Shown in pieces: positions 3,857-61,649 of a stretch of DNA of 64,000 bases. Source of the stretch: Candidatus Woesearchaeota archaeon (lineage in GTDB: Archaea; Nanobdellota; Nanobdellia; Woesearchaeales; JAGVZT01); NCBI GenBank assembly GCA_018263355.1, contig JAANXH010000054.1, positions 2,779-66,778 of the forward strand, read 5' to 3'. A program made the translations under genes and the position numbers. How positions within the stretch are numbered: position 1 is the first letter of the stretch; each line of letters begins with the position of its first letter. Below the pieces are notes generated by a model. That model was not told where the DNA came from. It saw only the letters and a list, made by a program, of their open reading frames with translations, and did not search any database.

Positions 3857-4162
3857 TCATTGATTCTTCTTATGTGAGAATTCAACAAATCTGAGTATGT
3901 TTTCGTTTGTATAATATTTGTAATAAAGCCTGAATGAATCAAGATATACTTCTTGTTCACCTTTCCTGCTGTATCTCATTGGTTTACCAACACTAGGATT
4001 TTTGACAATCTTTAGAATCTGTTTGAAAAGTCTTAATTTTTTCTGTTTATCTTTGATTTTACTTATTTGTTTGTTAAATTCATGAGAAAAACGTAGTTTA
4101 ATTTCAGATTGGTCTGCAGTTTCAATGATCTTATTTTTTAAATCTTTAAGATTTTTCTTCAT
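3857..4162 (-). CDS. RelE/ParE-like toxin (type II TA)
   Basis: C-terminal GKPMRYSRKGEQEVYLDSFRLYYKYY..ILRFVEFSHKK resembles RelE/ParE core; 4-nt overlap with upstream antitoxin gene. Confidence 0.55.
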   Translation of the reverse strand: MKKNLKDLKNKIIETADQSEIKLRFSHEFNKQISKIKDKQKKLRLFKQILKIVKNPSVGKPMRYSRKGEQEVYLDSFRLYYKYYTNENILRFVEFSHKKNQ

Positions 4163-4434
4163 AGAACATCTTTTGCGTCTAGCTCTTTTCCATTTTCCAT
4201 CTCACTGAGAATCTTATCATGTTTCATTGCTCTAATAAAATCTTCGGCATATGTGCTTTTTTCCCTTTTAATGTTTAAAATGTCTTTTACCGGCTTAAGT
4301 ACAATCTCATCATCCTCTGACATAACCACTAATTGAGCATCTTTAACTAGCCCAAGTTTTTTACGAATATTATTTGGGATTACAATCTGACCTTTTGTAC
4401 TCATTTTTGCTAATCCAATTTCCAATTTTCTCAC
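4159..4434 (-). CDS. AbrB/SpoVT(MazE)-family antitoxin
   Basis: KGQIVIPNNIRKKLGL swapped-hairpin motif; 91 aa; overlaps toxin gene start. Confidence 0.6.
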   Translation of the reverse strand: MRKLEIGLAKMSTKGQIVIPNNIRKKLGLVKDAQLVVMSEDDEIVLKPVKDILNIKREKSTYAEDFIRAMKHDKILSEMENGKELDAKDVL

Positions 4435-4493
4435 CTAAAGTAAGAAAAGTAAGAATGTTTATATAATTTGTGTTTTTATAGTAAAAAATAACG

Positions 4494-4612
4494 AAAAAGT
4501 GGCACAGAGGCGTTAATACCCTACATCATGTCACTAACGTTCCTGACCTTAAGCATAGCTTAAGGCTTTGGTGTAGGGATTAGCCTCTGTTTTTGACCGC
4601 CACTTTTTCGGA
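4494..4612. repeat. structured repeat family B, copy 1 (nested inverted repeats AAAAAGTGG..CAGAGGC..core..GCCTCTG..CCACTTTTT)
   Basis: near-identical core catcatgtcactaacgttcctgacNttaagcatagcttaaggcttt shared with 33850-34007; compensatory pair ccctaca/tgtaggg vs ccccaca/tgtgggg. Confidence 0.6.
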
Positions 4613-4639
4613 ACAACAAAATCTCTGATTTTGTGTCCA

Positions 4640-4690
4640 GGAAATCAAAGATTTCCTTGAATTGAAAATCCCGCAAAGCGTGATTTTCAA
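4640..4690. repeat. hairpin module X (ggaaatcaaagatttcc + gaaaatc..gattttc) adjacent to family B
   Basis: reverse complement of 33783-33839; same ggaaatc-N-gatttcc hairpin recurs at 6150, 12470, 12592, 12850. Confidence 0.4.
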
Positions 4691-4786
4691 TAACAAAGTA
4701 CAGGAAGTATTAAACAGCCCATCGCATCCATCTTTTTAAAGAAAAGCTGGACCAAAAACAGGAAGGTTTTCTCACTTAGTAGCCAA

Positions 4787-5986
4787 CTACATCAAAAAAT
4801 AAGATAATACAGGAAGTATTAAGCACCCCATGGCGTGATTTCTTCCAATATCTTTTAATGGAGCAATCAACCCGATAGCAGCACCAGTAATTAAGACTAT
4901 TATTCCTATTGGTCCATTTAACACTAAGCTCATAATAAATATCAAACTAATAACTGAGATAACTAATCTTTTGTAATTAACTTTTACAATCAAGTTGGAA
5001 AATATTTTGGAAAACCATAAAGTGAGTAAAACTGATACTGAGCCTGCAATTAAAAAAACAAAAATCAAGATTAAAAAAGAATTCAAGTCAATTTCCATTA
5101 ATTTTGAAATAACAACTATAGTGCCGTCTTTTGCTTTATCCAAAGTATAAAATGTAACTAAAGAAAACACAACACTCATTGTTCCCATAGCACCAACTAA
5201 AGCTAAATACCCTTTATCTTTAACATCTCTTACAATCTGGTTGCTTATCACTGCTCCCTGAGCTGGCCCTAATCCTGGAAAAAATTGAATAAAAAAAACT
5301 GCTATACTGCTTCCTAAAATAGCCTTAACCAAATCTTTAATCTTGAGATCAATTCTTGATTCAATCTTCTGCTTTGGAATTTTTGTATTTTCATAATAAC
5401 TTAAGATTAAACCAGAAACACCAAATAAACCAGATAACATTGGAAACAAAGGCTCTTTGAAATTTGGAATAGAGAACACAACCAATCCCAAAGTGCCAGA
5501 AAGCATAAATAAAATAAAACTCCATAGTTTCTTTTGTTCTTTTAAAATCATATAAATCATTAAAACCAACAGTAAGTATCCAACATAAGGTTTTAGAAAA
5601 TTATAGACTTTTGTAGCAATTAGCATAAAAACAGGAATTAGCACAATCGCAACCAATAAACCAATATATGTTCCTAGAATTGTAATTTTAACAGCCTGAT
5701 AACCTTCACCTTTTAAAAGCATTTTCTGACCTGGCAGCACAGATAAAGCATTCTCATTTTCCGGAGCACCCAAATAAATTGAAGGAATAGTGTCAAGAAA
5801 AGAATGCACCACGCTAAGTGAAATGATAAATGCAGCAAGTGATAGAGGAGACATAAACCCTAGCAACCAAGGGGACAGAGCAAACATAGCAGTTGCAACT
5901 AAGTTAACATGAATTCCAGGTATTATGCCTGTGATGATACCGCAGGACACGCCAACTAATAATGCTATAAGTATCTCAATAAACAT
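4787..5986 (-). CDS. polytopic membrane protein, TctA/DUF112-like transporter (tentative)
   Basis: 399 aa, about 10 TM segments, Gly/Pro-rich N-terminal helices IITGIIPGIHVNLVATAM. Confidence 0.45.
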   Translation of the reverse strand: MFIEILIALLVGVSCGIITGIIPGIHVNLVATAMFALSPWLLGFMSPLSLAAFIISLSVVHSFLDTIPSIYLGAPENENALSVLPGQKMLLKGEGYQAVKITILGTYIGLLVAIVLIPVFMLIATKVYNFLKPYVGYLLLVLMIYMILKEQKKLWSFILFMLSGTLGLVVFSIPNFKEPLFPMLSGLFGVSGLILSYYENTKIPKQKIESRIDLKIKDLVKAILGSSIAVFFIQFFPGLGPAQGAVISNQIVRDVKDKGYLALVGAMGTMSVVFSLVTFYTLDKAKDGTIVVISKLMEIDLNSFLILIFVFLIAGSVSVLLTLWFSKIFSNLIVKVNYKRLVISVISLIFIMSLVLNGPIGIIVLITGAAIGLIAPLKDIGRNHAMGCLILPVLSYFLM

Positions 5987-6002
5987 ATTGTGCGGTGCGG
6001 GC

Positions 6003-6202
6003 GGGACTCTCCAAGCCAGGGGCCAAACTTATTTGAACCAGCATGGAACTGAGAGTTCCACCTGAGTGTGCAAAAATCACTGATTTTTGAACACTTGAAA
6101 ACCTATGGTTTTCACGTGCATCAATCAGGCGCAATACCTGATTACACAGAAATCAAAGATTTATGTGTTAGGAAATCTCGGATTTCCTTTATGCGACCGC
6201 AC
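6003..6202 (-). ncRNA. candidate structured RNA or heavily interrupted tRNA-like gene
   Basis: GC-rich island in 500-nt intergenic gap; terminal 11-bp pairing GTGCagtGGTGCGG / CCGCACCGCAC; ends ..gagagtCCCGCCCGCACCG like the tRNA 3' exons found elsewhere; no clean cloverleaf found by eye. Confidence 0.2.
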
Positions 6203-6489
6203 CACTGCACAACGAAACACTCAAAAACTCCAATCTCTTCCTATAAACTTAACTGGGAGTTTCACTTGGGTTTATGTGACTCTTTGTTTCTTTTTTCCTA
6301 ATATCTATAAGAAATCCAGAGATGTAGATTTATATGCTTTGACTACAAAAAAGCAAAATACTTGCGAGAATTTGGAAATAAATCTTGATTTTTCATATTA
6401 ATAAGATTAATCTAAGTTTTCTTGGAGATCTTACGAATAATAAAAAAGAATTAATGTTTACCTGTTGATTTTTCCTTGATCTAATAATT

Positions 6490-12359: not shown

Positions 12360-12407
12360 AACTAAATGGAGAATAGATTTATTTAAAAGATTTATGTATA
12401 AGATATA

Positions 12408-12688
12408 TTACTCAGAATGCGTTGGGTCTAAATCCCCTGGCTGTCGGGAAGCATAGCTTCCTGAGCATGATCAGAAATCATAGATTTCTGACATTTAGCC
12501 CGTAGCATTATGAGTCTGAAAATCTGCTTATCAAAGTGAAGAGCGTAAAAGCTCCCACCTCTCAGAAATTTTAAATTTCTGATGATGGTTGCCAGAGCAA
12601 CCTATGAATGTTAATGAATATGATCAGAAAACTTTGTTTTCCGACATTTAGGTGGGAGATAAGATCTGAACAGCAGATTTTCTTTATA
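12408..12688. repeat. structured repeat family A, copy 1 (expanded by internal insertions)
   Basis: shares ttactcagaatgcgttgggtctaaa..gagtctgaaaatctgcttatcaaagtgaagagcgtaaaagc..ctgaacagcagattttcttta with 23741-23927 and 28964-29104; stem ctcccacct/aggtgggag covaries with cccccacct/aggtggggg. Confidence 0.7.
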
Positions 12689-12696
12689 AAATAAAA

Positions 12697-12982
12697 TGGG
12701 CTCAGAGGGACTTTCATAAACATTTAATTAAGCTAACCAAAGTTTTAACAATGCATTTGATTGTGTCGTGGTAATTTTGTGTTGATTATTCACCACGTAA
12801 AGGGACTTCAAGTCCCTTATGTTTTGGTCAAACCCAAGGAAAACATAGTTTTCCTGGCACAGGAAATTTTTGATTTCCCGGTGTTTTCTTAAAAGTTTGA
12901 TTTGAACCCTCGACCTATTAACCCAGTTTTAATAACTGTCTGGTTAAGAGCCAGTTGCTCTACCTAGCTAAGCTATGAGCCC
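12697..12982 (-). tRNA. intron-containing tRNA, anticodon CTT (Lys) inferred; about 190-nt intron after the T-loop plus extra insert 3' of anticodon arm
   Basis: 5' exon GGGCTCA ta GCTT AGCTAGGTA GAGC..CTGG CTCTTAA CCAG..GAGGG TTCAAAT; 3' exon CCCTC TGAGCCC A at 12697-12709 exactly complements T-stem and acceptor (12-nt match). Confidence 0.4.
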
Positions 12983-13034
12983 ACTTTTAGTTAATGAAAA
13001 AGAGGCAAATAAAAGGTTATAAATCTTTTGGAAT

Positions 13035-18730: not shown

Positions 18731-18825
18731 TATAGATTAGTGCTTTTATATAATATATAAATTTTTCTTATAGAAACACCACTTTTATCAAAACCTTTAA
18801 AAAAAACCACATTCTCCTAAAATAT

Positions 18826-19563
18826 ATGGTCAAATATGTATTTTATACAGAAAAAGGAAAAAGATTCTATTCTAAGGATGGAAAAGATATGCATACTCAA
18901 TATGGATACCTAACATCAGAAGATATCAAGAAGGCAAAATTTGGGCAAACATTAGAAACAAACACAGGAAAAAAAATGTCCAAGATAAAACCTAGTTTTA
19001 TGGATGTTTACACTAGGATTAAAAGAGGGGCTCAAATAATTCCACTAAAAGATATTGGGGTTATATTAACAGAAACAGGAATCAACAACAAAAGCAAAAT
19101 TGTGGATGCTGGCGCAGGCTCAGGTGGGCTTGCATGTTTCTTAGCAAACATTGCAAAACAAGTTACAACATATGATATTCGGGAGGATTTTATAAAAATA
19201 GTTGAGAAAAACAAAAAACTTCTAAACTTAAAAAATCTAAGAATAAAGAAGGGAAGCGTTTACGAGAAAATTGATGAGAAAAATATTGACCTAATAACTC
19301 TAGACTTGCCTGAGCCATGGAAAGCAGTAGAAAACGCTTCTAAATCTTTGGAAGTTGGAGGCTATATTATGTCATACTCACCATGTATACCACAGGTTAT
19401 GGACTTTGTAGAAGAAGTTAACAAGCATAATGAGTTATTATTCATAAAAACTATTGAAATAATAGAAAGAAAATGGGATATTAACAAAAGAAAAGTTAGG
19501 CCAAAAACTCAGACCATTGGCCACAGTGGGTTTATGACATTTGTAAGAAAAATAAAAAACTGA
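18826..19563 (+). CDS. trmI: tRNA (adenine-N1)-methyltransferase TrmI/Gcd14-like, SAM-dependent
   Basis: VDAGAGSGGLACFLA SAM motif; architecture typical of TrmI; TGA stop. Confidence 0.7.
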   Translation: MVKYVFYTEKGKRFYSKDGKDMHTQYGYLTSEDIKKAKFGQTLETNTGKKMSKIKPSFMDVYTRIKRGAQIIPLKDIGVILTETGINNKSKIVDAGAGSGGLACFLANIAKQVTTYDIREDFIKIVEKNKKLLNLKNLRIKKGSVYEKIDEKNIDLITLDLPEPWKAVENASKSLEVGGYIMSYSPCIPQVMDFVEEVNKHNELLFIKTIEIIERKWDINKRKVRPKTQTIGHSGFMTFVRKIKN

Positions 19564-22088: not shown

Positions 22089-22146
22089 TTAACAGTCACG
22101 CTCTTTGCTAAGCACACTCACTTTGTTCCTAGCTTATCAAAATAAG

Positions 22147-24078
22147 TTACTTCACGGTAACTGATTTTGCTAAGTTTCTGGGTTTGTCAGGATCTTTACC
22201 TAATTTTTTTGCTAGGTAATAAGCAAGCAATTGCATTGGTACAACATTTGCAATAGGTGAAGCATACCCACAGTCAGGAACCTTAATCCATTGATCAAAA
22301 ACTTCATTATCTTTTGGACTTACACCAATAATATGACCTCCTCTTGCTTTAACCTCTGCCGCGCTACTTAAAACAGCCATTTTATGTTCATCCTCTCCCA
22401 CAATAGCAATGCAAGGAGTAGCCTCTTCAATCAATGCAATTACACCATGCTTGAGTTCACCGCATGCAAAACCTTCTGCATGAATATAACTAATTTCTTT
22501 TATTTTCAAAGCTGATTCTAAAGCAATAGGATAATTAACACCCTTGCCAATAACATAAATGTGTTTCTTATTTTTTAGCTGATCTGCAATACGTTCAACA
22601 TTATTTAAAAAATCCTTATTAAGTAATTCTTTAATATTCTCTGCAGTATTTAGGATTAATTTTTTGCCCATTTCTTGCTTTCCTGCTAAAGTATAAGCCA
22701 GCATCAATAAAATTGCAATCTGTGAGGTAAATGCTTTTGTTGAAACAACAGAAATTTCTGGACCAGCATTCATTAGAATAGGATAATCTGAAATTCTGGT
22801 CAAACTTGAACCCATTACATTAACAATACTGGCTACTTTGGAATTATGTTTTTTTGCAGTCTCAACAGCATCTAGTGTGTCAGCAGTCTCACCACTTTGG
22901 CTAACTGCTATAACCAAGCTTTTGTCAGTAAGAAAATGTTGGTGATCAGAAAACTCGGAGCCTACTAAAAAATTAATATGTTTTTTGGCAATCTTAGAAA
23001 AATAATATGTGCCAAGTAATGCAGCATAACTTGCAGTACCGCATCCAATCAAAAAACTTCCATAAGCCTTATCAATAACTTTAGCCAGTTTTTTAACTTT
23101 TATACTATCCTGGACTGCAGAATCTTCTATAGTATCTGGTTGCTGCATTATTTCTTTGATTGTGTAGTTCTCGTAATCTCCCTTCTGTGCCTGCTCAACA
23201 TCCCAGTTAACAATTTCAATATCTTTCCTAATCTCCTTTCCAGTATTATCAAAAAACTCAATATTATTATTGATTTCTACACCTTCATCATTATCCAAAA
23301 AAACAATTTTGTTTGTATGCTCAATAAATGCAGGAATATCTGAAGCAATAAAATGACCCTTATCAGAAACACCAACAACAATTGGTGCACCCTTTCTAAT
23401 AGCAAACAATTTTTCACTAGGTTTATGAAATAACACAATTGCATTTCTTCCTTGAATAATATTACCAAGTTTGATTAAAGCGTTTCTTACCCCTAAAGAG
23501 CTATGCTCTTCAAGAAAATGAGCAATCACTTCTGTATCAGTATCAGATATAAATTTATGTTCTGAAAGTGTTTTTTTAATTTCCTGATAATTTTCAATAA
23601 TCCCATTGTGCACAACAATCATATCTTGGTTACAATCAGTTTGTGGATGAGCATTGTTCATAGTAACAGACCCATGTGTGGCCCATCTTGTGTGCCCTAA
23701 TGCAATATTACTTTTATCAAGTTTAACATCTGGATTAAAATTACTCAAAATGTCCAAGGGTCTAAAGCCCCGCCCTTTAGGGCGAGGACTTTTGAGTCTG
23801 AAAATCTGCGTGTCGAAGTGAAGAGCGTAAAAGCCCCCACCTTCAGGTGGGGGAATCAGTTGCCAGAGCAACTCAGAAACGAAGCAAAGCGAAGTGAGAT
23901 TAGCTCTGAACAGCAGATTCTCTTTACCTATCTTCCCTACTTTCTTGATTAGCTGCAGATCATTATCAAAAGTTGCAATTCCCCAAGAATCATAACCCCT
24001 GTACTCTAATCTTTTCAAACCTTCAATAACAATATCTGTTGCATTACCTTTTCCTTTATATGCTATTATACCACACAT
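22147..24078 (-). CDS. glmS: glutamine--fructose-6-phosphate aminotransferase (GlmS) carrying an about 62-aa in-frame insertion from repeat family A
   Basis: MCGI N-terminal nucleophile, HTRWATHG, two SIS domains, C-terminal KSVTV; insertion between GKIGKENL and LGHTRWATHG. Confidence 0.85.
   Translation of the reverse strand: MCGIIAYKGKGNATDIVIEGLKRLEYRGYDSWGIATFDNDLQLIKKVGKIGKENLLFRANLTSLCFVSELLWQLIPPPEGGGFYALHFDTQIFRLKSPRPKGRGFRPLDILSNFNPDVKLDKSNIALGHTRWATHGSVTMNNAHPQTDCNQDMIVVHNGIIENYQEIKKTLSEHKFISDTDTEVIAHFLEEHSSLGVRNALIKLGNIIQGRNAIVLFHKPSEKLFAIRKGAPIVVGVSDKGHFIASDIPAFIEHTNKIVFLDNDEGVEINNNIEFFDNTGKEIRKDIEIVNWDVEQAQKGDYENYTIKEIMQQPDTIEDSAVQDSIKVKKLAKVIDKAYGSFLIGCGTASYAALLGTYYFSKIAKKHINFLVGSEFSDHQHFLTDKSLVIAVSQSGETADTLDAVETAKKHNSKVASIVNVMGSSLTRISDYPILMNAGPEISVVSTKAFTSQIAILLMLAYTLAGKQEMGKKLILNTAENIKELLNKDFLNNVERIADQLKNKKHIYVIGKGVNYPIALESALKIKEISYIHAEGFACGELKHGVIALIEEATPCIAIVGEDEHKMAVLSSAAEVKARGGHIIGVSPKDNEVFDQWIKVPDCGYASPIANVVPMQLLAYYLAKKLGKDPDKPRNLAKSVTVK
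23741..23927. repeat. structured repeat family A, copy 2, inside glmS coding sequence (reverse orientation to gene, no stop codons in gene frame)
   Basis: ttactcaaaatgtccaagggtctaaagcccc..gagtctgaaaatctgc..gtgaagagcgtaaaagcccccaccttcaggtggggg..ctgaacagcagattctctttac. Confidence 0.7.
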
Positions 24079-28832: not shown

Positions 28833-28952
28833 TTTCAACTACTATGTGTTAGCATAATGCATGATTTAAGTGAAGGAGACAATCAGTTAAAAGTCAGGTT
28901 TTAACTCTTGCTTTAGCAAGTATGAAACGAGTAGTTTCTTTAGAGAACTTTG
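28833..28952. repeat. partial or rearranged copy of repeat family E in gatDE leader
   Basis: tcaactactatgtgttagc..tgatttaagtgaaggagacaa and tttagagaactttg match the two ends of the E element. Confidence 0.4.
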
Positions 28953-28963
28953 AAATACCCATT

Positions 28964-29104
28964 TTACTCAGAATGCGTTGGGTCTAAAGCCCCGGGCTTT
29001 AGCCCGCAGCATTATGAGTCTGAAAATCTGCTTATCAAAGTGAAGAGCGTAAAAGCCCCCTCCTTTAGGTGGGGGATCAGCTCTGAACAGCAGATTTTCT
29101 TTAC
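28964..29104. repeat. structured repeat family A, copy 3 (compact form)
   Basis: ttactcagaatgcgttgggtctaaagccccgggctttagccc..gagtctgaaaatctgcttatcaaagtgaagagcgtaaaagccccctcctttaggtggggg..ctgaacagcagattttctttac. Confidence 0.7.
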
Positions 29105-29647: not shown

Positions 29648-31738
29648 ATGAGAAAATCAGAAAAAACTTTTATTATAATTAACATAGTTTGTTTATTATT
29701 TGCAGCAGCTGTAATAATAAATGGGCTAGTGCAAAAACCAGTTTATACAAATCCAGGAACATATAATCAATTATCTTTTGATCCAGACAGTCCAGTAAAA
29801 ACTAAACAATTTGATTCTGTTCAAGATTATCAGGATTTTATCAGTAATAGCGGAGGCCAAAGTTCCTCATATTATGGTGCTAGAACATTGGGGGTTGCAC
29901 AAGATAGTGCTGGGATGATGGTAGAATCTGCTGCAAAAATAGAGTCTGCTCCAAGCGCAGGTGGATCAGATTACTCAGAAACAAATGTGCAGGTTGAAAA
30001 TGTAGATGAAGGAGATGTAATAAAAACCGACGGAGAATATATATACACAATTTCAGACAATACCTTGTTTATTGTAAAAGCATATCCAGGACAAGAAGCA
30101 GAAGTAGTATTTTCAGAAAAACTAGACAATAAGCCAACTGGCATGTTTATTAAAGGAAATAAGTTAGCTGTTTTTGGACAATTTAATAATATAGAATATT
30201 TTAAAAAAATAGATTTTCGGCCAAAGTACGGCATGACTTATCTTAACATATATGATACAACTGACAAATCAGACCCAGAACTAGTAAAGGAATTCAAATT
30301 TGAAGGATCTTATTTTAATTCAAGAATGATTCAGGATGATATGTATCTAATAGTAAGAACCAGACCATATTATAGAGATGCGTTTCCAACACCTCTAATG
30401 ATAGAAGGTGAAAGAAAAATTGGCATGCCAGTGAGTGATATTCATTATTATAACATCCCATACAATAATCCACAATTAGTAACAGTTTATTCTGTTGATA
30501 TTGATGATAATGAGGCAGTAGATTCTGCAGCAGTAGCTGTTGAGTATGGTCAAAACATGTACATGTCAGAGAATAATATCTTCATAACATACACAGAAAG
30601 AATTAATGAATACGAGATTCAACAAGAAATAGTAATGGATTTAATGCAAGACAAGCTTACAGATGCTGACAAACAAGTAGTGGAAAAAATAAAAGCAACA
30701 GATAACCAAGTATTAAGTCAAAGAGAAAAACAGCAAAAAATCATGCAGATATATGAATCCTATGTTTATTACCTTGATCAGGAGGAACAAGACGAACTGC
30801 AAGATAAGGCAGAATTAATGCTAAAAAACAAGCTTGAAAAATATAAGCACTTAGAGTTCACGGTTATTAACAAAATAGAAGCTGATAATGGCCAAGTCAA
30901 GGTAGGTTCAAACGGAAAAGTACCTGGACAAATTATCAACCAATTCTCAATGGATGAAAATGATAATGTGTTTAGAATAGCAACTACCATAAACTCAAGA
31001 TGGTCAAGATTTGACAAACAAAGAACACAGTCAACAAACAATGTATATGCATTAAATCAGAATCTTGATATAATCGGTGAACTAGAAGGGCTTGCACCTG
31101 GAGAAAGAATTTACTCAACCAGATTTATGCATGACAGACTCTACATGGTAACATTTAAGCAAGTTGATCCATTCTTTGTTATAGACTTGAGTAATCCAAG
31201 AGATATTGAGCAATTGGGTAAACTAAAAATACCTGGATTTTCAAGATATCTTCACCCTTATGATGAGGACACAATAATTGGGATTGGTCAGGAGGCAACA
31301 GAAACAGGCAGAACAACTGGATTGAAAATATCTTTATTTGATGTTAGTGATGTTGAAAACCCAGAGGAAATAGCCAAATTTGTAACAGAAGAAAGATATG
31401 CAAGATCCACTGCATTGTATGAGCACAAAGCATTCTTGTTTTCAAAAGAAAAAGAGCTTTTGGTAATCCCTGCATATAGTTATAATTACAAAGACAGTGA
31501 AGGTTACAATGGGGCTTTTGTTTTTGACATAACCAAAGACAATATTGAACTTAGAGGTCTAATTGACCATTCACAAGGTTCAGGCAGACACTATCGTCCA
31601 AGTGTTGAAAGAAGTCTGTATATTGAGGAACTGCTGTATACTAAATCACCAACATTGCTGAGAATAAATCAACTAGAAGATTTAAGTTCAGTAAAATCAG
31701 TTAAGCTTGAGCAAGAGTCAGACATCAAGGTCTATTGA
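29648..31738 (+). CDS. secreted beta-propeller domain protein (tentative family assignment)
   Basis: signal-anchor IINIVCLLFAAAVIING; YSTRFMHDRLYMVTFKQVDPFFVIDLSNPRDIEQLGKLKIPGFSRYLHPYDEDTIIGIGQEA block. Confidence 0.55.
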   Translation: MRKSEKTFIIINIVCLLFAAAVIINGLVQKPVYTNPGTYNQLSFDPDSPVKTKQFDSVQDYQDFISNSGGQSSSYYGARTLGVAQDSAGMMVESAAKIESAPSAGGSDYSETNVQVENVDEGDVIKTDGEYIYTISDNTLFIVKAYPGQEAEVVFSEKLDNKPTGMFIKGNKLAVFGQFNNIEYFKKIDFRPKYGMTYLNIYDTTDKSDPELVKEFKFEGSYFNSRMIQDDMYLIVRTRPYYRDAFPTPLMIEGERKIGMPVSDIHYYNIPYNNPQLVTVYSVDIDDNEAVDSAAVAVEYGQNMYMSENNIFITYTERINEYEIQQEIVMDLMQDKLTDADKQVVEKIKATDNQVLSQREKQQKIMQIYESYVYYLDQEEQDELQDKAELMLKNKLEKYKHLEFTVINKIEADNGQVKVGSNGKVPGQIINQFSMDENDNVFRIATTINSRWSRFDKQRTQSTNNVYALNQNLDIIGELEGLAPGERIYSTRFMHDRLYMVTFKQVDPFFVIDLSNPRDIEQLGKLKIPGFSRYLHPYDEDTIIGIGQEATETGRTTGLKISLFDVSDVENPEEIAKFVTEERYARSTALYEHKAFLFSKEKELLVIPAYSYNYKDSEGYNGAFVFDITKDNIELRGLIDHSQGSGRHYRPSVERSLYIEELLYTKSPTLLRINQLEDLSSVKSVKLEQESDIKVY

Positions 31739-32890
31739 TGTCTCTCTTATCATCAGGATTAATCCTGTTGAAACAAATACAGATGCAGCTATTCCCACGC
31801 TGCCTGGAAAAGAATAATTAATAAGCAATCCTCCAATTAAAGGTCCAATAATTTGGGAAATACTAGCAAGAGAACTTGCTACCCCCATTATTGTTCCTTG
31901 TTCTTTTTTTGATACTAATCTTGAAATCTTTCCATTAAATAAAGGTCTTGAAAGTCCAGTGCCAACTGCAAACAGAGTAATAAAACCATAATACATAATT
32001 GTGCTTGAAATAAATGGTGTAGATAATAAACCAACCAGCATCAAAGTTACTGATGCATAATGCAACATCCTTTCTCCAATTTTATCAATTAAAATTCCAA
32101 GGAAAATTCCTCTTAATACAATACTTATTCCTCCCACATAGGCCAGTAACCAGCCCATATCAACTGCAGTAAATCCTAGCTGTCTTTCAGCATACATTGC
32201 AGAACTGCTAACCCAAATAACATGAGCCATAAAATATGTGAAAGCTTGCATTAATACCTGAGTTATACCAGGTTTTTTAAAATACTTAATATAATCCTGA
32301 AAATGAAATATCTTAAAATCAAATTCAAGATCTTTTCTGGATTTAACTGTTTCAGGAAGCAACAAATATGTTAAAATAATGGTTACTAAAGATATTGCAG
32401 CTGCAGCTAAAGCTGGATACATATAACCAAATCCAGACAACCAGCCTCCAATTGCAGGTCCAAACAAGAACCCCACCCCAAATGCAACTCCGCTTATTCC
32501 AAAGATCTTACTTCTGTTTTTTTCTGAAGAAATATCACTTAAATAAGCCTGAGCAATAGTAAAATTACTTCCAACTAATCCATCAATGACCCTTGATAAT
32601 AAAATCATCCAATAAGTTCCTGAAAATGCTAGTACAATAAAACTAACAAAAGTTGAAAACTGTGAAATAATTAGCATAGGTCTTCTTCCAAAATAATCAC
32701 TTAGCCTGCCCATAAAAGGAGCAGAAACAAACTGACATATTGAAAATACAGCAAGAATTATCCCAACAAAAAACGGACTTGCACCCAATTCCTGGGCAAA
32801 AAAAGGAAGATATGGTAAAACTAAGGAAAATCCTAGCACTTCTGTGACTAAAATAAGAAAAATGATTATCTTATGTTTTGTGTATTTCAT
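31718..32890 (-). CDS. MFS transporter
   Basis: MFS motif A GRLSDYFGRRPMLIIS; 12 TM layout. Confidence 0.85.
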   Translation of the reverse strand: MKYTKHKIIIFLILVTEVLGFSLVLPYLPFFAQELGASPFFVGIILAVFSICQFVSAPFMGRLSDYFGRRPMLIISQFSTFVSFIVLAFSGTYWMILLSRVIDGLVGSNFTIAQAYLSDISSEKNRSKIFGISGVAFGVGFLFGPAIGGWLSGFGYMYPALAAAAISLVTIILTYLLLPETVKSRKDLEFDFKIFHFQDYIKYFKKPGITQVLMQAFTYFMAHVIWVSSSAMYAERQLGFTAVDMGWLLAYVGGISIVLRGIFLGILIDKIGERMLHYASVTLMLVGLLSTPFISSTIMYYGFITLFAVGTGLSRPLFNGKISRLVSKKEQGTIMGVASSLASISQIIGPLIGGLLINYSFPGSVGIAASVFVSTGLILMIRETSIDLDV

Positions 32891-32934: not shown

Positions 32935-33120
32935 GGCAAAGTCACTGATCTGTGTTAGCTCCATAAATGCCTGATTTAAGTGAAGGAGACAACGATGATC
33001 GTAAGAGTCAGTGGGGGAACAGTTTGCCTTCTGTAAATAAAACTTAATGCAATATGAATGGGTTTTAGCAAACTGGCGACTGAACCTGCAATGTGGGGCT
33101 AACATTAACTTGACTTCGCC
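32935..33120. repeat. repeat family E, copy 1: about 186-nt element bounded by 13-bp terminal inverted repeats (ggcaaagtcaNtg / cNttgacttcgcc), MITE-like, in MFS gene leader
   Basis: about 90% identical to reverse complement of 42022-42210; shared context continues to caatattaATGAAA start. Confidence 0.6.
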
Positions 33121-33555: not shown

Positions 33556-33782
33556 ACTCTTTTATTTAAACTATTTACTTAAAAACTTTTCTATTAAGAT
33601 TCAGGCAGTGATACAATCTAGATTAATGAAGCGAGATCTACTTTTCGTTATTTGAAAATTTTACAGGTTTAATATGTCTGAAAAATGTTGTTTTTCTGAT
33701 CATCTCAGAAATCTTCAATTTCTAAGACCTCACATAATATCACTTAGGTTCCTAACTTTCAGCGTAGCTGAAAGCTTCAGTG

Positions 33783-33839
33783 TGAAATTTTCAATTCAAG
33801 GAAATCTTTGATTTCCTGAAAAGAAAATGTTTCACATTT
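33783..33839. repeat. hairpin module X, inverted copy, adjacent to family B copy 2
   Basis: gattttcaattcaaggaaatctttgatttcctg is reverse complement of 4640-4672. Confidence 0.4.
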
Positions 33840-33849
33840 TCAAGTTCCG

Positions 33850-34007
33850 AAAAAGTGGTAGTCAAAGCAGAGGCGACAATACCCCACATCATGTCACTAA
33901 CGTTCCTGACATTAAGCATAGCTTAAGGCTTTATTGTGGGGATTGGTTGGAAAGCGAAGCTTTACAACTCACTGAACACAGTGACCGTGAGCCTCTGCAC
34001 CACTTTT
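33850..34007. repeat. structured repeat family B, copy 2
   Basis: same core and nested stems as 4494-4612, with compensatory substitutions. Confidence 0.6.
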
Positions 34008-34015
34008 TAGTTATT

Positions 34016-34381
34016 TTATTCAATTACGTCGACTTCAAAAGTTCTAGAACTATCATCAATCTTGAGTTTTTTACCTTCATAAGAGATAGTAGTTAAATTT
34101 TTTTGATTAGTAACATTGGAGGTTTTTTTGTTTTGGTCAAGCCAATTAGAGTCTAAAATCTGACCCTCTTCACATTTGTTCTTACATGTGGCCTTTTCAT
34201 TAAAATAACAGCAAATCTCTTTGTCAATACAATCTTTATCTGACCAACAATAAGTTGGACCCCAAAAACCGCCAGCTGCCGCACCAGTGATGTTTGGTTT
34301 TTTGATTGTTGAATAAGAAAGTGCACCGATAAATATACCAATTATAAAAATTGCAAAAATTATGATAAAAATTCTTTCCAT
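34016..34381 (-). CDS. small membrane-anchored cysteine-rich protein, paralog of 33139-33555 (start moved to MERIFIIIF)
   Basis: shared spacing DC-x3-(V/I)CC-x5/6-C-x2-K-x-C: CWSDKDCIDKEICCYFNEKATCKNKC. Confidence 0.5.
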   Translation of the reverse strand: MERIFIIIFAIFIIGIFIGALSYSTIKKPNITGAAAGGFWGPTYCWSDKDCIDKEICCYFNEKATCKNKCEEGQILDSNWLDQNKKTSNVTNQKNLTTISYEGKKLKIDDSSRTFEVDVIE

Positions 34382-41078: not shown

Positions 41079-41097
41079 ATTTTCTACCTCCAAAATT

Positions 41098-41267
41098 TGG
41101 CCAGTGCTACAAATGGACTGATAGTGGTCAAAATTCGTCTGTGCCGTGGATGACATGAAATGACTTTTTTGTTATTCATGGCGGGGCCAGACGTAGTTTT
41201 TCTGCAGGAAAAACAGAGTAGGATTTTGAACCATATTAGTCACTCTGATACACTGCCAAAATTTGTA
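41098..41267 (-). promoter_or_regulatory. repeat family D copy 1: about 170-nt structured leader element immediately 5' of the HMA-DsbD_2 gene
   Basis: about 90% identical to 61399-61556 with compensatory changes (gccgtgg/tcatggc vs gccatgg/tcgtggc; GGCAGTG/CACTGGCC vs GGCGGTG/CACTGCC). Confidence 0.55.
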
Positions 41268-42021: not shown

Positions 42022-42210
42022 GGCAAAGTCAACTTAATTGTGGAAAGCCCCATAATACCGGTTCAGTCGCCAGTTTGCTAAACTCTCCTTGATATTGTAT
42101 TAAGTCATATTAATAGACGGCAAACTGTTCCCACTGACTCTTACGATCATCGTTGTCTCCTTCACTTAACTCAGGCATTAATGGAGCTAACACAGAGTAG
42201 TTGACTTTGC
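42022..42210. repeat. repeat family E, copy 2: MITE-like element with perfect 13-bp terminal inverted repeats ggcaaagtcaact/agttgactttgcc, in EamA gene leader
   Basis: inverted copy of 32935-33120; same orientation relative to downstream gene as copy 1. Confidence 0.6.
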
Positions 42211-42267: not shown

Positions 42268-43125
42268 ATGAAACTCAATAAAAAATTATTATATGTTGCA
42301 ATTTTTTCAATCAGCTGGGCATTTGTTATTACAATAAACAAGCATGGCTTGAACTTAGGAACAAAACCTTTTCAATATACAGCACAAACCAATTTCATAA
42401 CAGCAATAATTCTTTCTCTTTTAGTTTTCTTTACAAAAAAACAAGAATTTGCAAAAATTGATAAAAATCTAATCTTAAAGATGATAGCAATAGGATTGTG
42501 TGTTGGTATTGCATACATAACAGGAATTTACGGCCTAAAATTAACATCTTCCATAAACTATGGATTTGTAATTAAAAGCGCAATGATTTTCACAATTATT
42601 CAGGCATATATTTTTCTAAAAGAAAAACTTACAAAACAAAAAATTCTGTTATTAATAGTATTTACAATTGGTGCTTATCTGGTTACAACTGCTGGTAAAT
42701 TATTAATACCTAAACCAGGTGACTTGTTAACTATGGTTGCAGCGCTTGGTTTTAGCAGTGCCAACATTATCCAGAAAAAACTAACAAAGGAAATTGATCC
42801 AGTACTGATTACCTGGGCAAGAATCACCTTTGCATTTTTGACAGTTGCAATTGCATCATTAGTAATTGGAAAAAACATATTTGAGATAATTGCGCCAGTT
42901 CATGTCATTGCAGTAGGGTTTTTATCTGTAATTCTAGTAATTTATCTTGTAAAAACATTATCTGTTGCAAGCGCATCTTATCTAACAATGACGTCAATGA
43001 TAACCCCATTTTTAGTTACAATATTTGGACTAGTTTTTCTAAAAGAAACAATAAACATATTCCAGATAATCGGTGGAATTTTGATTATAGGTTGTGGTGT
43101 ATTGGTACATAAGCTAGATATGTAG
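42268..43125 (+). CDS. EamA/DMT-family transporter
   Basis: 285 aa, 10 TM, two EamA-like halves. Confidence 0.75.
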   Translation: MKLNKKLLYVAIFSISWAFVITINKHGLNLGTKPFQYTAQTNFITAIILSLLVFFTKKQEFAKIDKNLILKMIAIGLCVGIAYITGIYGLKLTSSINYGFVIKSAMIFTIIQAYIFLKEKLTKQKILLLIVFTIGAYLVTTAGKLLIPKPGDLLTMVAALGFSSANIIQKKLTKEIDPVLITWARITFAFLTVAIASLVIGKNIFEIIAPVHVIAVGFLSVILVIYLVKTLSVASASYLTMTSMITPFLVTIFGLVFLKETINIFQIIGGILIIGCGVLVHKLDM

Positions 43126-61371: not shown

Positions 61372-61398
61372 ATACTCACCCCATTTAATTCTTAGTTT

Positions 61399-61556
61399 GG
61401 CAGTGTTACAAATAGACTGATGGTGGTCAAAATTCGTCTGTGCCATGGATGACATGAAATAACCTTTTTGTTATTCGTGGCAGGGCCAGACGTAGTTTTT
61501 CTGCAGGAAAAACAGAGTAGGATTTTGAACAATATCAGTCACTCTGATACACCGCC
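61399..61556 (-). promoter_or_regulatory. repeat family D copy 2: structured leader element 5' of mscL
   Basis: see 41098-41267; GGTGAG Shine-Dalgarno-like 5 nt upstream of ATG at 61371. Confidence 0.55.
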
Positions 61557-61649
61557 TTAACTTGACATTGCCTGTCTTATGTATCACTACAAAATGCTAA
61601 AATTTATATATCAGTGTATCTTTTTGTAAACTACAAAAAAGAGGTTATA

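Follow-up and report, generated by a model that had tools for sequence, protein, structure and literature searches.

Family B, nested hairpin repeats of a DPANN archaeon and their possible nature as a mosaic palindromic repeat

Family B is a small, previously undescribed family of nested hairpin repeats in a Candidatus Woesearchaeota archaeon, a DPANN organism of tiny, symbiotic type. It is of the interspersed palindromic repeat kind and is not a member of any named family; no name was assigned because the tested features of REP sequences, bulge–helix–bulge (BHB) introns, C/D and H/ACA sRNAs, riboswitches and Rfam families failed. Its copies lie in the window, that is, the whole 64-kb stretch of DNA analysed here, as well as on two contigs of one MAG (L128 and L130) and on one JGI metagenome contig (L142). 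Family B can tentatively be described, with somewhat less than even confidence, as a lineage-restricted, composite, non-autonomous mosaic palindromic repeat made and rearranged at the DNA level, like REP/BIME or MITEs. This description is drawn from a modular, mobile-like anatomy, nesting in other elements, a patchy distribution, DNA-like pairing, the lack of signs of a dedicated gene, and two ORFs ending at stops at or inside an element border. DPANN genomes are very small and thought to be streamlined, and proliferating nested structured repeats would be unexpected in them, all the more so if linked with long tRNA introns and with an enzyme gene of the essential type that carries an in-frame insertion. 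If the description is true, DPANN archaea would have their first described REP/BIME-like or RPE-like system, and with it a tractable case for the spread and tolerance of short hairpin modules inside RNAs and proteins.

Nested arms and the inverted frame

The window has a GC content of about 33% and encodes archaeal aIF5B; the nearest relatives of its GlmS come from Woesearchaeota and other DPANN or CPR genomes, and Pfam scans of about 50 window ORFs returned ordinary housekeeping and transport genes and no transposase. The window's TctA permease matches at 100% identity a protein of a Candidatus Woesearchaeota MAG, locus tag MAG795_01157, which is encoded on an 86-kb NCBI contig, and DNA of the organism is present in the runs SRR10589499, SRR10589500 and SRR10589507. 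Two structured repeated copies had been proposed in an initial annotation, and both are present (copy 1 at 4494–4608, copy 2 at 33850–34008) with each of their three nested helices in its place. A third copy with a diverged core, absent from that annotation, was found just upstream of copy 2 by pattern search and a repeat finder. The features are as follows (bit scores from module model R1 or model R2).

4494..4608, plus strand: Family B copy 1, 55.8 bits (R1) and 89.5 bits (R2)
4494–4502 / 4600–4608: outer helix P3 of copy 1, AAAAAGTGG / CCACTTTTT
4505–4511 / 4583–4589: helix P2 of copy 1, CAGAGGC / GCCTCTG
4519–4525 / 4572–4578: helix P1 of copy 1, CCCTACA / TGTAGGG
4526–4546 and 4547–4565: conserved loop and apical hairpin of copy 1
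4531..4565, plus strand: core module c1 of copy 1, TCACTAACGTTCCTGA followed by CCTTAAGC-ATA-GCTTAAGG
4486..4502, minus strand: frame end of copy 1, CCACTTTTTCGTTATTT on the gene strand (T5, then T-rich)
4616..4688, plus strand: three AT-rich flank hairpins 3' of copy 1, namely ACAAAATC-tct-GATTTTGT (4616–4634), GGAAATC-aaa-GATTTCC (4640–4656) and GAAAATC...GATTTTC (4664–4688)
33728..33787, plus strand: Family B copy 3, diverged core, 52.0 bits (R1) and 83.2 bits (R2)
33787..33849, plus strand: flank hairpin block 5' of copy 2, an inverted copy of 4592–4669, with GGAAATC-ttt-GATTTCC (33800–33816) and GAAAATG-tttca-CATTTTC
33850..34016 (helices to 34008), plus strand: Family B copy 2, 53.6 bits (R1)
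33850–33858 / 34000–34008: helix P3 of copy 2
33868–33874 / 33991–33997: helix P2 of copy 2
33882–33888 / 33935–33941: helix P1 of copy 2, CCCCACA / TGTGGGG
33894–33928, plus strand: core module of copy 2
34000–34016: frame end of copy 2, CCACTTTTTAGTTATTT
22118..22146, plus strand: possible degenerate module, TCACTTTGTTCC followed by TAGCTTAT-caaa-ATAAGTTA, 20.1 bits, E 3e-4 (R1)

The R1 scan of the window thus returned three strong copies (52–56 bits) and one marginal match at 22118–22146. The core pattern has three matches in the window against 0.22 expected, and the outer-frame pattern has four against 0.00 expected. The units are single or paired, and all lie on one strand. The weak module at 22118–22146 is located in the 58-nt gap between a phosphoglucomutase gene and glmS and is antisense to its flanking genes, as are copies 1–3.

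A shared core of 46 nt had been described; it is common to copies 1 and 2 and was measured as 47 nt with a single mismatch (C4548 vs A33911). Its palindrome CTTAAGC-ata-GCTTAAG is perfect in copy 1 only, since in copy 2 the first C is replaced by A and the outermost pair is A.G. In the third helix, P1, a T-A pair is replaced by C-G, as annotated (CCCTACA/TGTAGGG vs CCCCACA/TGTGGGG). Copy 2 carries extra hairpins of about 45 nt between P1 and P2 (33945–33986), while copy 3 has a 5-bp P1, TCACA/TGTGA, and the hairpin CTTTCAGC-GTA-GCTGAAAG.

The outer frame is asymmetric, the spacing between AAAAAGTGG and CAGAGGC being 2 nt on one side and 9–10 nt on the other. In copy 1, whose frame reads in the minus-strand direction, the long linker lies on the minus strand; in copy 2 it lies on the plus strand, and the core is on the plus strand in both. 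Because the linker switches strand while the orientation of the core is kept, the core of one copy is inverted in its frame compared with the other, as would be expected if inverted arms had recombined. The modules are thus rearranged, as had been proposed, and the inverted frame is part of the modular, mobile-like anatomy that speaks for a mosaic repeat. The flank module is likewise inverted between the copies: 4628–4669 and 33787–33828 are 93% complementary, and 4592–4622 and 33836–33866 are 84% complementary. The hairpin type GGAAATC-NNN-GATTTCC has seven matches in the window (≤2 mismatches) against 0.36 expected; these include one at 6171–6187, near the 6150 position named earlier, and two in a tRNA intron (12838–12854 and 12862–12878), also in agreement with the initial annotation. 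The match at 6171–6187, GGAAATC-tcg-GATTTCC, is one of several AT-rich hairpins in a GC-rich structured region (5988–6210, plus strand) whose ends pair (GTGCGGT... / ...ACCGCAC, then CA); this region has no Rfam match and is possibly a further RNA gene that inserts have interrupted.

The frame terminates as CCACTTTTT-MGTTATTT. In copy 1 the frame end CCACTTTTTCGTTATTT lies immediately upstream of the TATA box of a mazE-like gene, whereas the final base of the frame end of copy 2 is the third base of the TAA stop (34016–34018) of a 168-aa gene. All window copies occupy intergenic gaps separating same-strand genes, and on each strand T5 and then further T-runs come after the long stem (CCACTTTTTCGTTATTTTTT and CCACTTTTTAGTTATTTT). 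It could be supposed from these positions, and from copy 1 stopping just short of the next gene's TATA box, that Family B is primarily selected to terminate transcription in both directions, or to act as an insulator, where genes of a compact genome point the same way. This is quite unlikely, since oligo-T alone is sufficient for archaeal transcription termination, the L142 copy has no T-run after its helix, and the conserved apical loop block, the tandem clusters and the copies in Family A and glmS would be left unexplained. If Family B is a mosaic repeat, its long stem and T5 on both strands may serve as an intergenic terminator or insulator only as a side effect, and the whole element would probably be transcribed only passively along with its neighbours.

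The 35-nt module and its pairing

The common unit of all aligned copies is a 35-nt module and not the 120-nt rod. It consists of TCACT-(N)AC-GTTCC-NNN followed by an 8-bp hairpin, in which the top, AGC-NTA-GCT, is fixed and the lower half is variable. The copies number about 14 in total, come from three sources, and many are non-independent. In nine module copies, 95.8% of the hairpin cells form standard pairs, and this drops to 19–53% when partner columns are shifted; double-sided changes occur in four of the eight hairpin pairs, comprising 10 cells compared with 2.6 in shuffles. The alignment of more copies, which had been set as a test that might refute the covariation, has therefore strengthened it. 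In addition, compensatory pairing is backed by the L142 copy, whose enclosing helix is a perfect 9 bp, CCACCAGTC/GACTGGTGG, with a sequence unrelated to CCCYACA/TGTRGGG; this helix was taken from the minimum-free-energy fold, as R2 did not align the offset P1 of this copy.

All hairpin pairs are Watson–Crick, with G-U in none of 72 cells in the nine copies, and the swaps include transversions (U-A to A-U, C-G to A-U) without intermediates. Folding energies are equal on both strands, and predicted G-U pairs are equally rare on either (7 vs 11 of about 245). Watson–Crick-only covariation without strand bias is also shown by DNA palindromes and is alone no proof of RNA function; palindrome self-correction at the DNA level would give this pairing pattern as its expected outcome. 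The lack of G-U pairs and the equal energies are, therefore, among the grounds for the mosaic-repeat reading.

Meanwhile, Family B could be a structured small non-coding RNA, or an RNA module in longer transcripts, in which a conserved 15-nt unpaired block on a covarying stem is a platform for a protein or nucleic acid and the outer helices pair a 5' A-run with a 3' U-run, protecting the ends. This is a serious alternative, though a doubtful one. The block TCACTNACGTTCCT is invariant or nearly so in module copies c1–c5 and the L142 copy despite changes in the stems, and L142 keeps an enclosing helix even though its sequence is wholly different. The copies form rod-like folds with z-scores of −4.1 to −6.9 against shuffled sequence, T5 follows the outer helix P3, and the core (TCACT strand) is antisense to the flanking genes at six of eight loci. 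Against this, the strand asymmetry of energies and G-U pairs is absent, and the inversion of the core within the frame would make one of the two orientations antisense if the frame carried signals. The window contains no complementary target with up to 3 mismatches, close relatives have no copy, and L128 is without the 5' arms of the outer helices. An archaeal sRNA gene would be expected to have its own BRE/TATA about 26 nt ahead of its 5' end and an oligo-T terminator. TATA-like boxes occur near copy 1 (4459–4467), near the L128 copy and near the L142 copy (~4816–4826), each preceding by about 29 nt the start codon of the neighbouring gene on the opposite strand; they were rejected as sRNA promoter evidence because each fits that adjacent leaderless gene, and no promoter can be assigned to the element itself. 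The discrete RNA gene of about 120 nt proposed in the initial annotation is accordingly unsupported, both by the equal folding and G-U counts of the two strands and by these TATA boxes. If Family B is a functional RNA after all, the invariant 15-nt loop marks a lineage-specific RNA–protein or RNA–RNA interaction.

The marks of known RNA classes were also compared with the element. The CUGA-like CCTGAC is not preceded on its 5' side by a C box (RUGAUGA), and CUGA itself is unconserved (CCTAAC, CCGGAC, CGTTAT); the ACA expected of an H/ACA RNA is missing after P1, and no GA.AG tandem, the mark of a k-turn, flanks the hairpin. Also weighed and dismissed were a k-turn, T-loop mimicry and a trans target within the window. 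A riboswitch or cis-regulatory leader was rejected, as the neighbours are functionally unrelated and the TCACT strand is antisense to the flanking genes.

It is very improbable that the core encodes a micro-peptide, either MLKVRNVSDMM* on the minus strand or MSLTFLTLSIA* on the plus strand. The variable positions of the loop block share one codon phase in c1–c5 and L142, so that the peptides stay similar, and a stop codon falls at the same place in c1, c3 and L142. However, the start codon is missing from c3, c4 and c5, there are 1-nt deletions in c6, c9 and c11, the changes in the hairpin are explained by base pairing, and with only two or three variable positions the phase pattern is not significant. 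A protein-database search with an 89-aa ORF spanning copy 2 returned no candidate.

In the mosaic-repeat reading, the conserved single-stranded block (TCACT-NAC-GTTCC) directly 5' of the hairpin would be a recognition unit. A trans-acting enzyme encoded elsewhere in the genome is hypothesized to recognise block and hairpin on ssDNA and to put or copy the module into unpaired AT-rich sites. Y1/HUH transposases show the same kind of recognition of REPs and of IS200/IS605 ends. Recombination between inverted arms would flip the inner segments, and palindrome self-correction would keep the arms perfectly complementary; in copies 1 and 2, three inverted-repeat arms surround the module, and AT-rich hairpins adjoin it. 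Several results speak against the reading. Neither the 64-kb window nor 25 kb of the other element-bearing loci yielded a transposase, RAYT or integrase, no clean target-site duplication or insertion target was definable for Family B, and no empty-versus-filled orthologous site was obtained. Moreover, a 13–15-nt unpaired block is kept in three organisms while the enclosing helix is wholly changed, and a functional RNA would look alike.

Module inserts in Family A, glmS and tRNA-Lys

Another repeat family, Family A, has three copies in the window (12400–12693, 23742–23927 and 28960–29103, all on the minus strand), each with a two-domain fold and a z-score of about −6.8. The shortest copy is without the module, and a variant of the module is a discrete insert in the other two:

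23858..23897, minus strand: variant module, TCACTTCGCTTTGCTTCGTTTCTG followed by AGTTGC-tctg-GCAACT, inside the Family A element that interrupts glmS
12587..12620, minus strand: degenerate variant module, TTCATTAACATTCATAGGTTGCTCTGGCAACC, in the Family A copy 12400–12693, 7.6 bits only

On L130 a Family A scaffold carries module inserts at several junctions and loops, some in tandem and some reversed. The inserts in Family A are discrete, 35–45 nt long, and located at junctions and loops with the host helices preserved; they show no clear target-site duplication. This nesting in Family A is among the grounds for a mosaic repeat. The same placement in loops and junctions also favours a small RNA, as inserts that always spare the helices of the host element could alternatively mean selection on RNA structure.

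The gene glmS (22147–24078) contains the Family A copy at 23742–23927 on the minus strand as a 186-nt in-frame, stop-free insertion between GKIG and FNPDVKLDKSN, where homologues are contiguous; the intergenic copies 12400–12693 and 28960–29103 are near-identical to it. The insert may be translated or spliced. A tRNA-Lys(CTT), at about 12700–12983 on the minus strand, contains an intron in the anticodon region and a 188-nt T-loop insert of AT-rich hairpins. ARAGORN found no tRNA in the raw window, with or without anticodon-loop introns, and this tRNA was recognised by ARAGORN and Rfam only once the 188-nt insert had been removed by hand. A relative, L138 (~18739–18980), has a tRNA T-loop insert at the same position.

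From these cases, Family B might be thought an RNA-level intervening element akin to the long tRNA introns of the lineage, cut out by the splicing endonuclease, with reverse splicing or intron transposition as its means of spread. AT-rich hairpins of the flank type are found in the T-loop intron of tRNA-Lys, with a similar T-loop intron in the relative, the module-bearing Family A interrupts glmS, and the inserts prefer unpaired loops. A BHB has two 3-nt bulges on opposite strands with a 4-bp helix between them. The transposed BHB tRNA introns of Thermoproteales, reportedly described by Fujishima et al. in 2010, resemble the present case in that archaeal multi-intron tRNAs contain related short structured sequences recurring at several places, but Family B borders are without a visible BHB, its copies are intergenic and its pairing is DNA-symmetric. 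General background on BHB introns has been published (PMC7714728, PMC2738675). On inspection of the folds, no 4-bp central helix was present at Family B borders, and neither the glmS junctions nor the borders of copies 1 and 2 could be drawn as a BHB; P3 and P2 are separated by bulges of 2 nt on one side and 9–10 nt on the other. Copies 1–3 are intergenic with no recognisable interrupted gene, and the glmS insert is in frame and stop-free, which argues for translation over splicing. An intron-like origin is, therefore, distinctly improbable.

The Rickettsia palindromic elements (RPE), reportedly described by Ogata et al. in 2000, are said to lie in frame in protein genes and also in RNA genes and intergenic DNA. 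The 186-nt stop-free insertion in glmS is alike, whereas this in-frame insertion is Family A and not Family B, there is no sequence similarity, and the host belongs to another domain of life. More broadly, it is speculated, with rather little confidence, that the 35-nt module is the unit of an undescribed structure-targeting mobile system in DPANN archaea, which would insert into single-stranded loops (ssDNA or RNA) of structured elements, successive insertions building hairpin-in-loop mosaics in intergenic DNA, long tRNA introns and ORFs without destroying them.

Distribution, known repeats and neighbouring genes

The scan of GTDB species representatives gave ten pattern matches, two with the hairpin, and both of these were in one MAG, "uncultured Methanosarcinales archaeon binchicken_co97_164" (CAYQPU01), on contigs L128 and L130. 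These contigs have 33–35% GC and DPANN-like pilus genes; the contigs may be mislabelled as Methanosarcinales or misbinned, or else the elements may have passed from one lineage to another. The archaeal pilus genes on L128 and L130 resemble those adjoining TctA in Woesearchaeota, and the repeat families are the same as in the window. L128 has one isolated core, whose P1 is 6 bp long and whose two outer helices are represented by their 3' halves alone, and a neighbouring ORF enters the frame-end sequence by three codons, with its stop at L128 789–791. L130 has a 730-nt intergenic cluster of at least 8 modules (~8), six of one orientation and two of the opposite one, interspersed with other motifs. 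The core with only a 3' half-frame, the tandem and two-orientation cluster, and the ORFs ending at stops at or within the element border in L128 and at copy 2 all count towards the mosaic-repeat reading.

In the JGI metagenomes the strict core pattern had no match, and a relaxed pattern had three (L140, L141 and L142). The L141 match is inside a coding sequence and the L140 match is without a proper hairpin; both were treated as chance. L142 (JGI Ga0209541_10020395) holds a genuine copy (45.1 bits) with a 7-bp hairpin and a new covarying pair. This copy lies in an island of 30–34% GC on a contig otherwise of 55–60% GC, and the island looks like an integrated or foreign segment. Besides the Family B-like element, the L142 island (4000–6000) has a weak pair of ParE-like genes and, at 5090–5215 on the minus strand, a tRNA-like sequence that contains inserts.

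No copy was found by BLAST, regex or covariance model at Woesearchaeota loci where TctA is 76–90% identical. Loose and strict patterns gave only chance matches in viral contigs (a phage protein gene and one unrelated contig), and BLAST of copy 1 against plasmid and phage collections gave no match. For Rfam 15, the whole window had no match at the gathering threshold; at E up to 10, both loci stayed at chance level, the best being DUF3800-VIII with 18.4 bits against a cut-off of 40.2, and L128, L130, L141 and L142 gave nothing relevant. The mosaic-repeat reading draws on this patchy distribution, with unrelated gene contexts, TctA relatives without copies and the GC island of L142, and also on the lack of dedicated-gene signs, as there is no Rfam family, the TATA boxes are explained and no downstream gene is conserved.

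REP/BIME sequences of proteobacteria owe their mobility to RAYT (Y1/HUH) transposases and can have terminator or stabiliser roles; their marks are GTAG 5' of an imperfect palindrome, clusters in alternating orientation and a RAYT gene that is usually flanked by REPs. Like them, Family B consists of short extragenic imperfect palindromes with a conserved single-stranded motif beside the hairpin, single or clustered between genes, the L130 cluster having modules in both orientations among other short motifs. Unlike them, its motif is TCACT...GTTCC and not GTAG, its host is a DPANN archaeon, and some modules lie inside another repeat family and, through it, a coding sequence. The tetranucleotide GTAG is absent from the conserved 5' block of Family B, and no PF01797-type (RAYT) protein was found among the scanned ORFs of the 64-kb window and the other loci.

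The ends of IS200/IS605 elements have subterminal hairpins, without terminal inverted repeats or target duplications. MITEs and the IS200/IS605-derived PATE of archaea resemble Family B in being small, non-coding, AT-rich, structured, repeated, nesting and patchy among relatives. In contrast, no parent IS or TnpA/TnpB was seen for Family B, its termini, target site and duplication were not definable, and its 35-nt conserved unit is far below the typical MITE size. For copies 1 and 2, terminal inverted repeats might be seen in the P3 arms AAAAAGTGG/CCACTTTTT, but the sequence common to the window and L128 reaches past these arms (GAAAATTTTACWGGTTTAATA ... AGTTATTT), and L128 is without the 5' arm. 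A motif like ACTTTT(T)CGTTATTT occurs at both borders of copy 1 and of the composite 33640–34016, and it is indistinguishable from a reused terminator-like module.

The neighbours of the element are unrelated to one another (MazE/ParE, TctA, two uncharacterised proteins of 138 and 168 aa, a pilus gene and a radical SAM gene), and no neighbouring or downstream gene is conserved across the element loci. A toxin–antitoxin association was considered, as copy 1 and the L142 copy lie upstream of ParE-like pairs, and was rejected since no relationship between the proteins could be detected and such a pair is absent from the other loci. Shared neighbour proteins were also rejected, the 254-aa and 168-aa ORFs not being homologous.

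Other repeats were observed in the window. The last ~12 codons of TctA and a spacer of about 70 nt are tandemly duplicated downstream of the gene (4689–4725 and 4798–4834), with two units in the window and three in a relative, L134 1690–1975, whose TctA is 90% identical. A repeat of about 160 nt occurs at 32944–33100 and, inverted, at 42046–42201 (94% identical over 72 nt), with a partial copy at 28855–28882; the two copies lie 54–67 nt upstream of transporter genes in the same relative orientation, namely an MFS gene (31718–32890, minus strand) and an EamA gene (42268–43125, plus strand). This repeat has no Rfam match at E up to 5 and is a candidate cis-regulatory leader RNA. Finally, a 169-nt repeat at 41097–41265 and 61396–61564 (91% identical) has terminal inverted repeats, TTTGGC(C)AGTG ... 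CACTGCCAAA, and looks like another MITE-like or structured element family.
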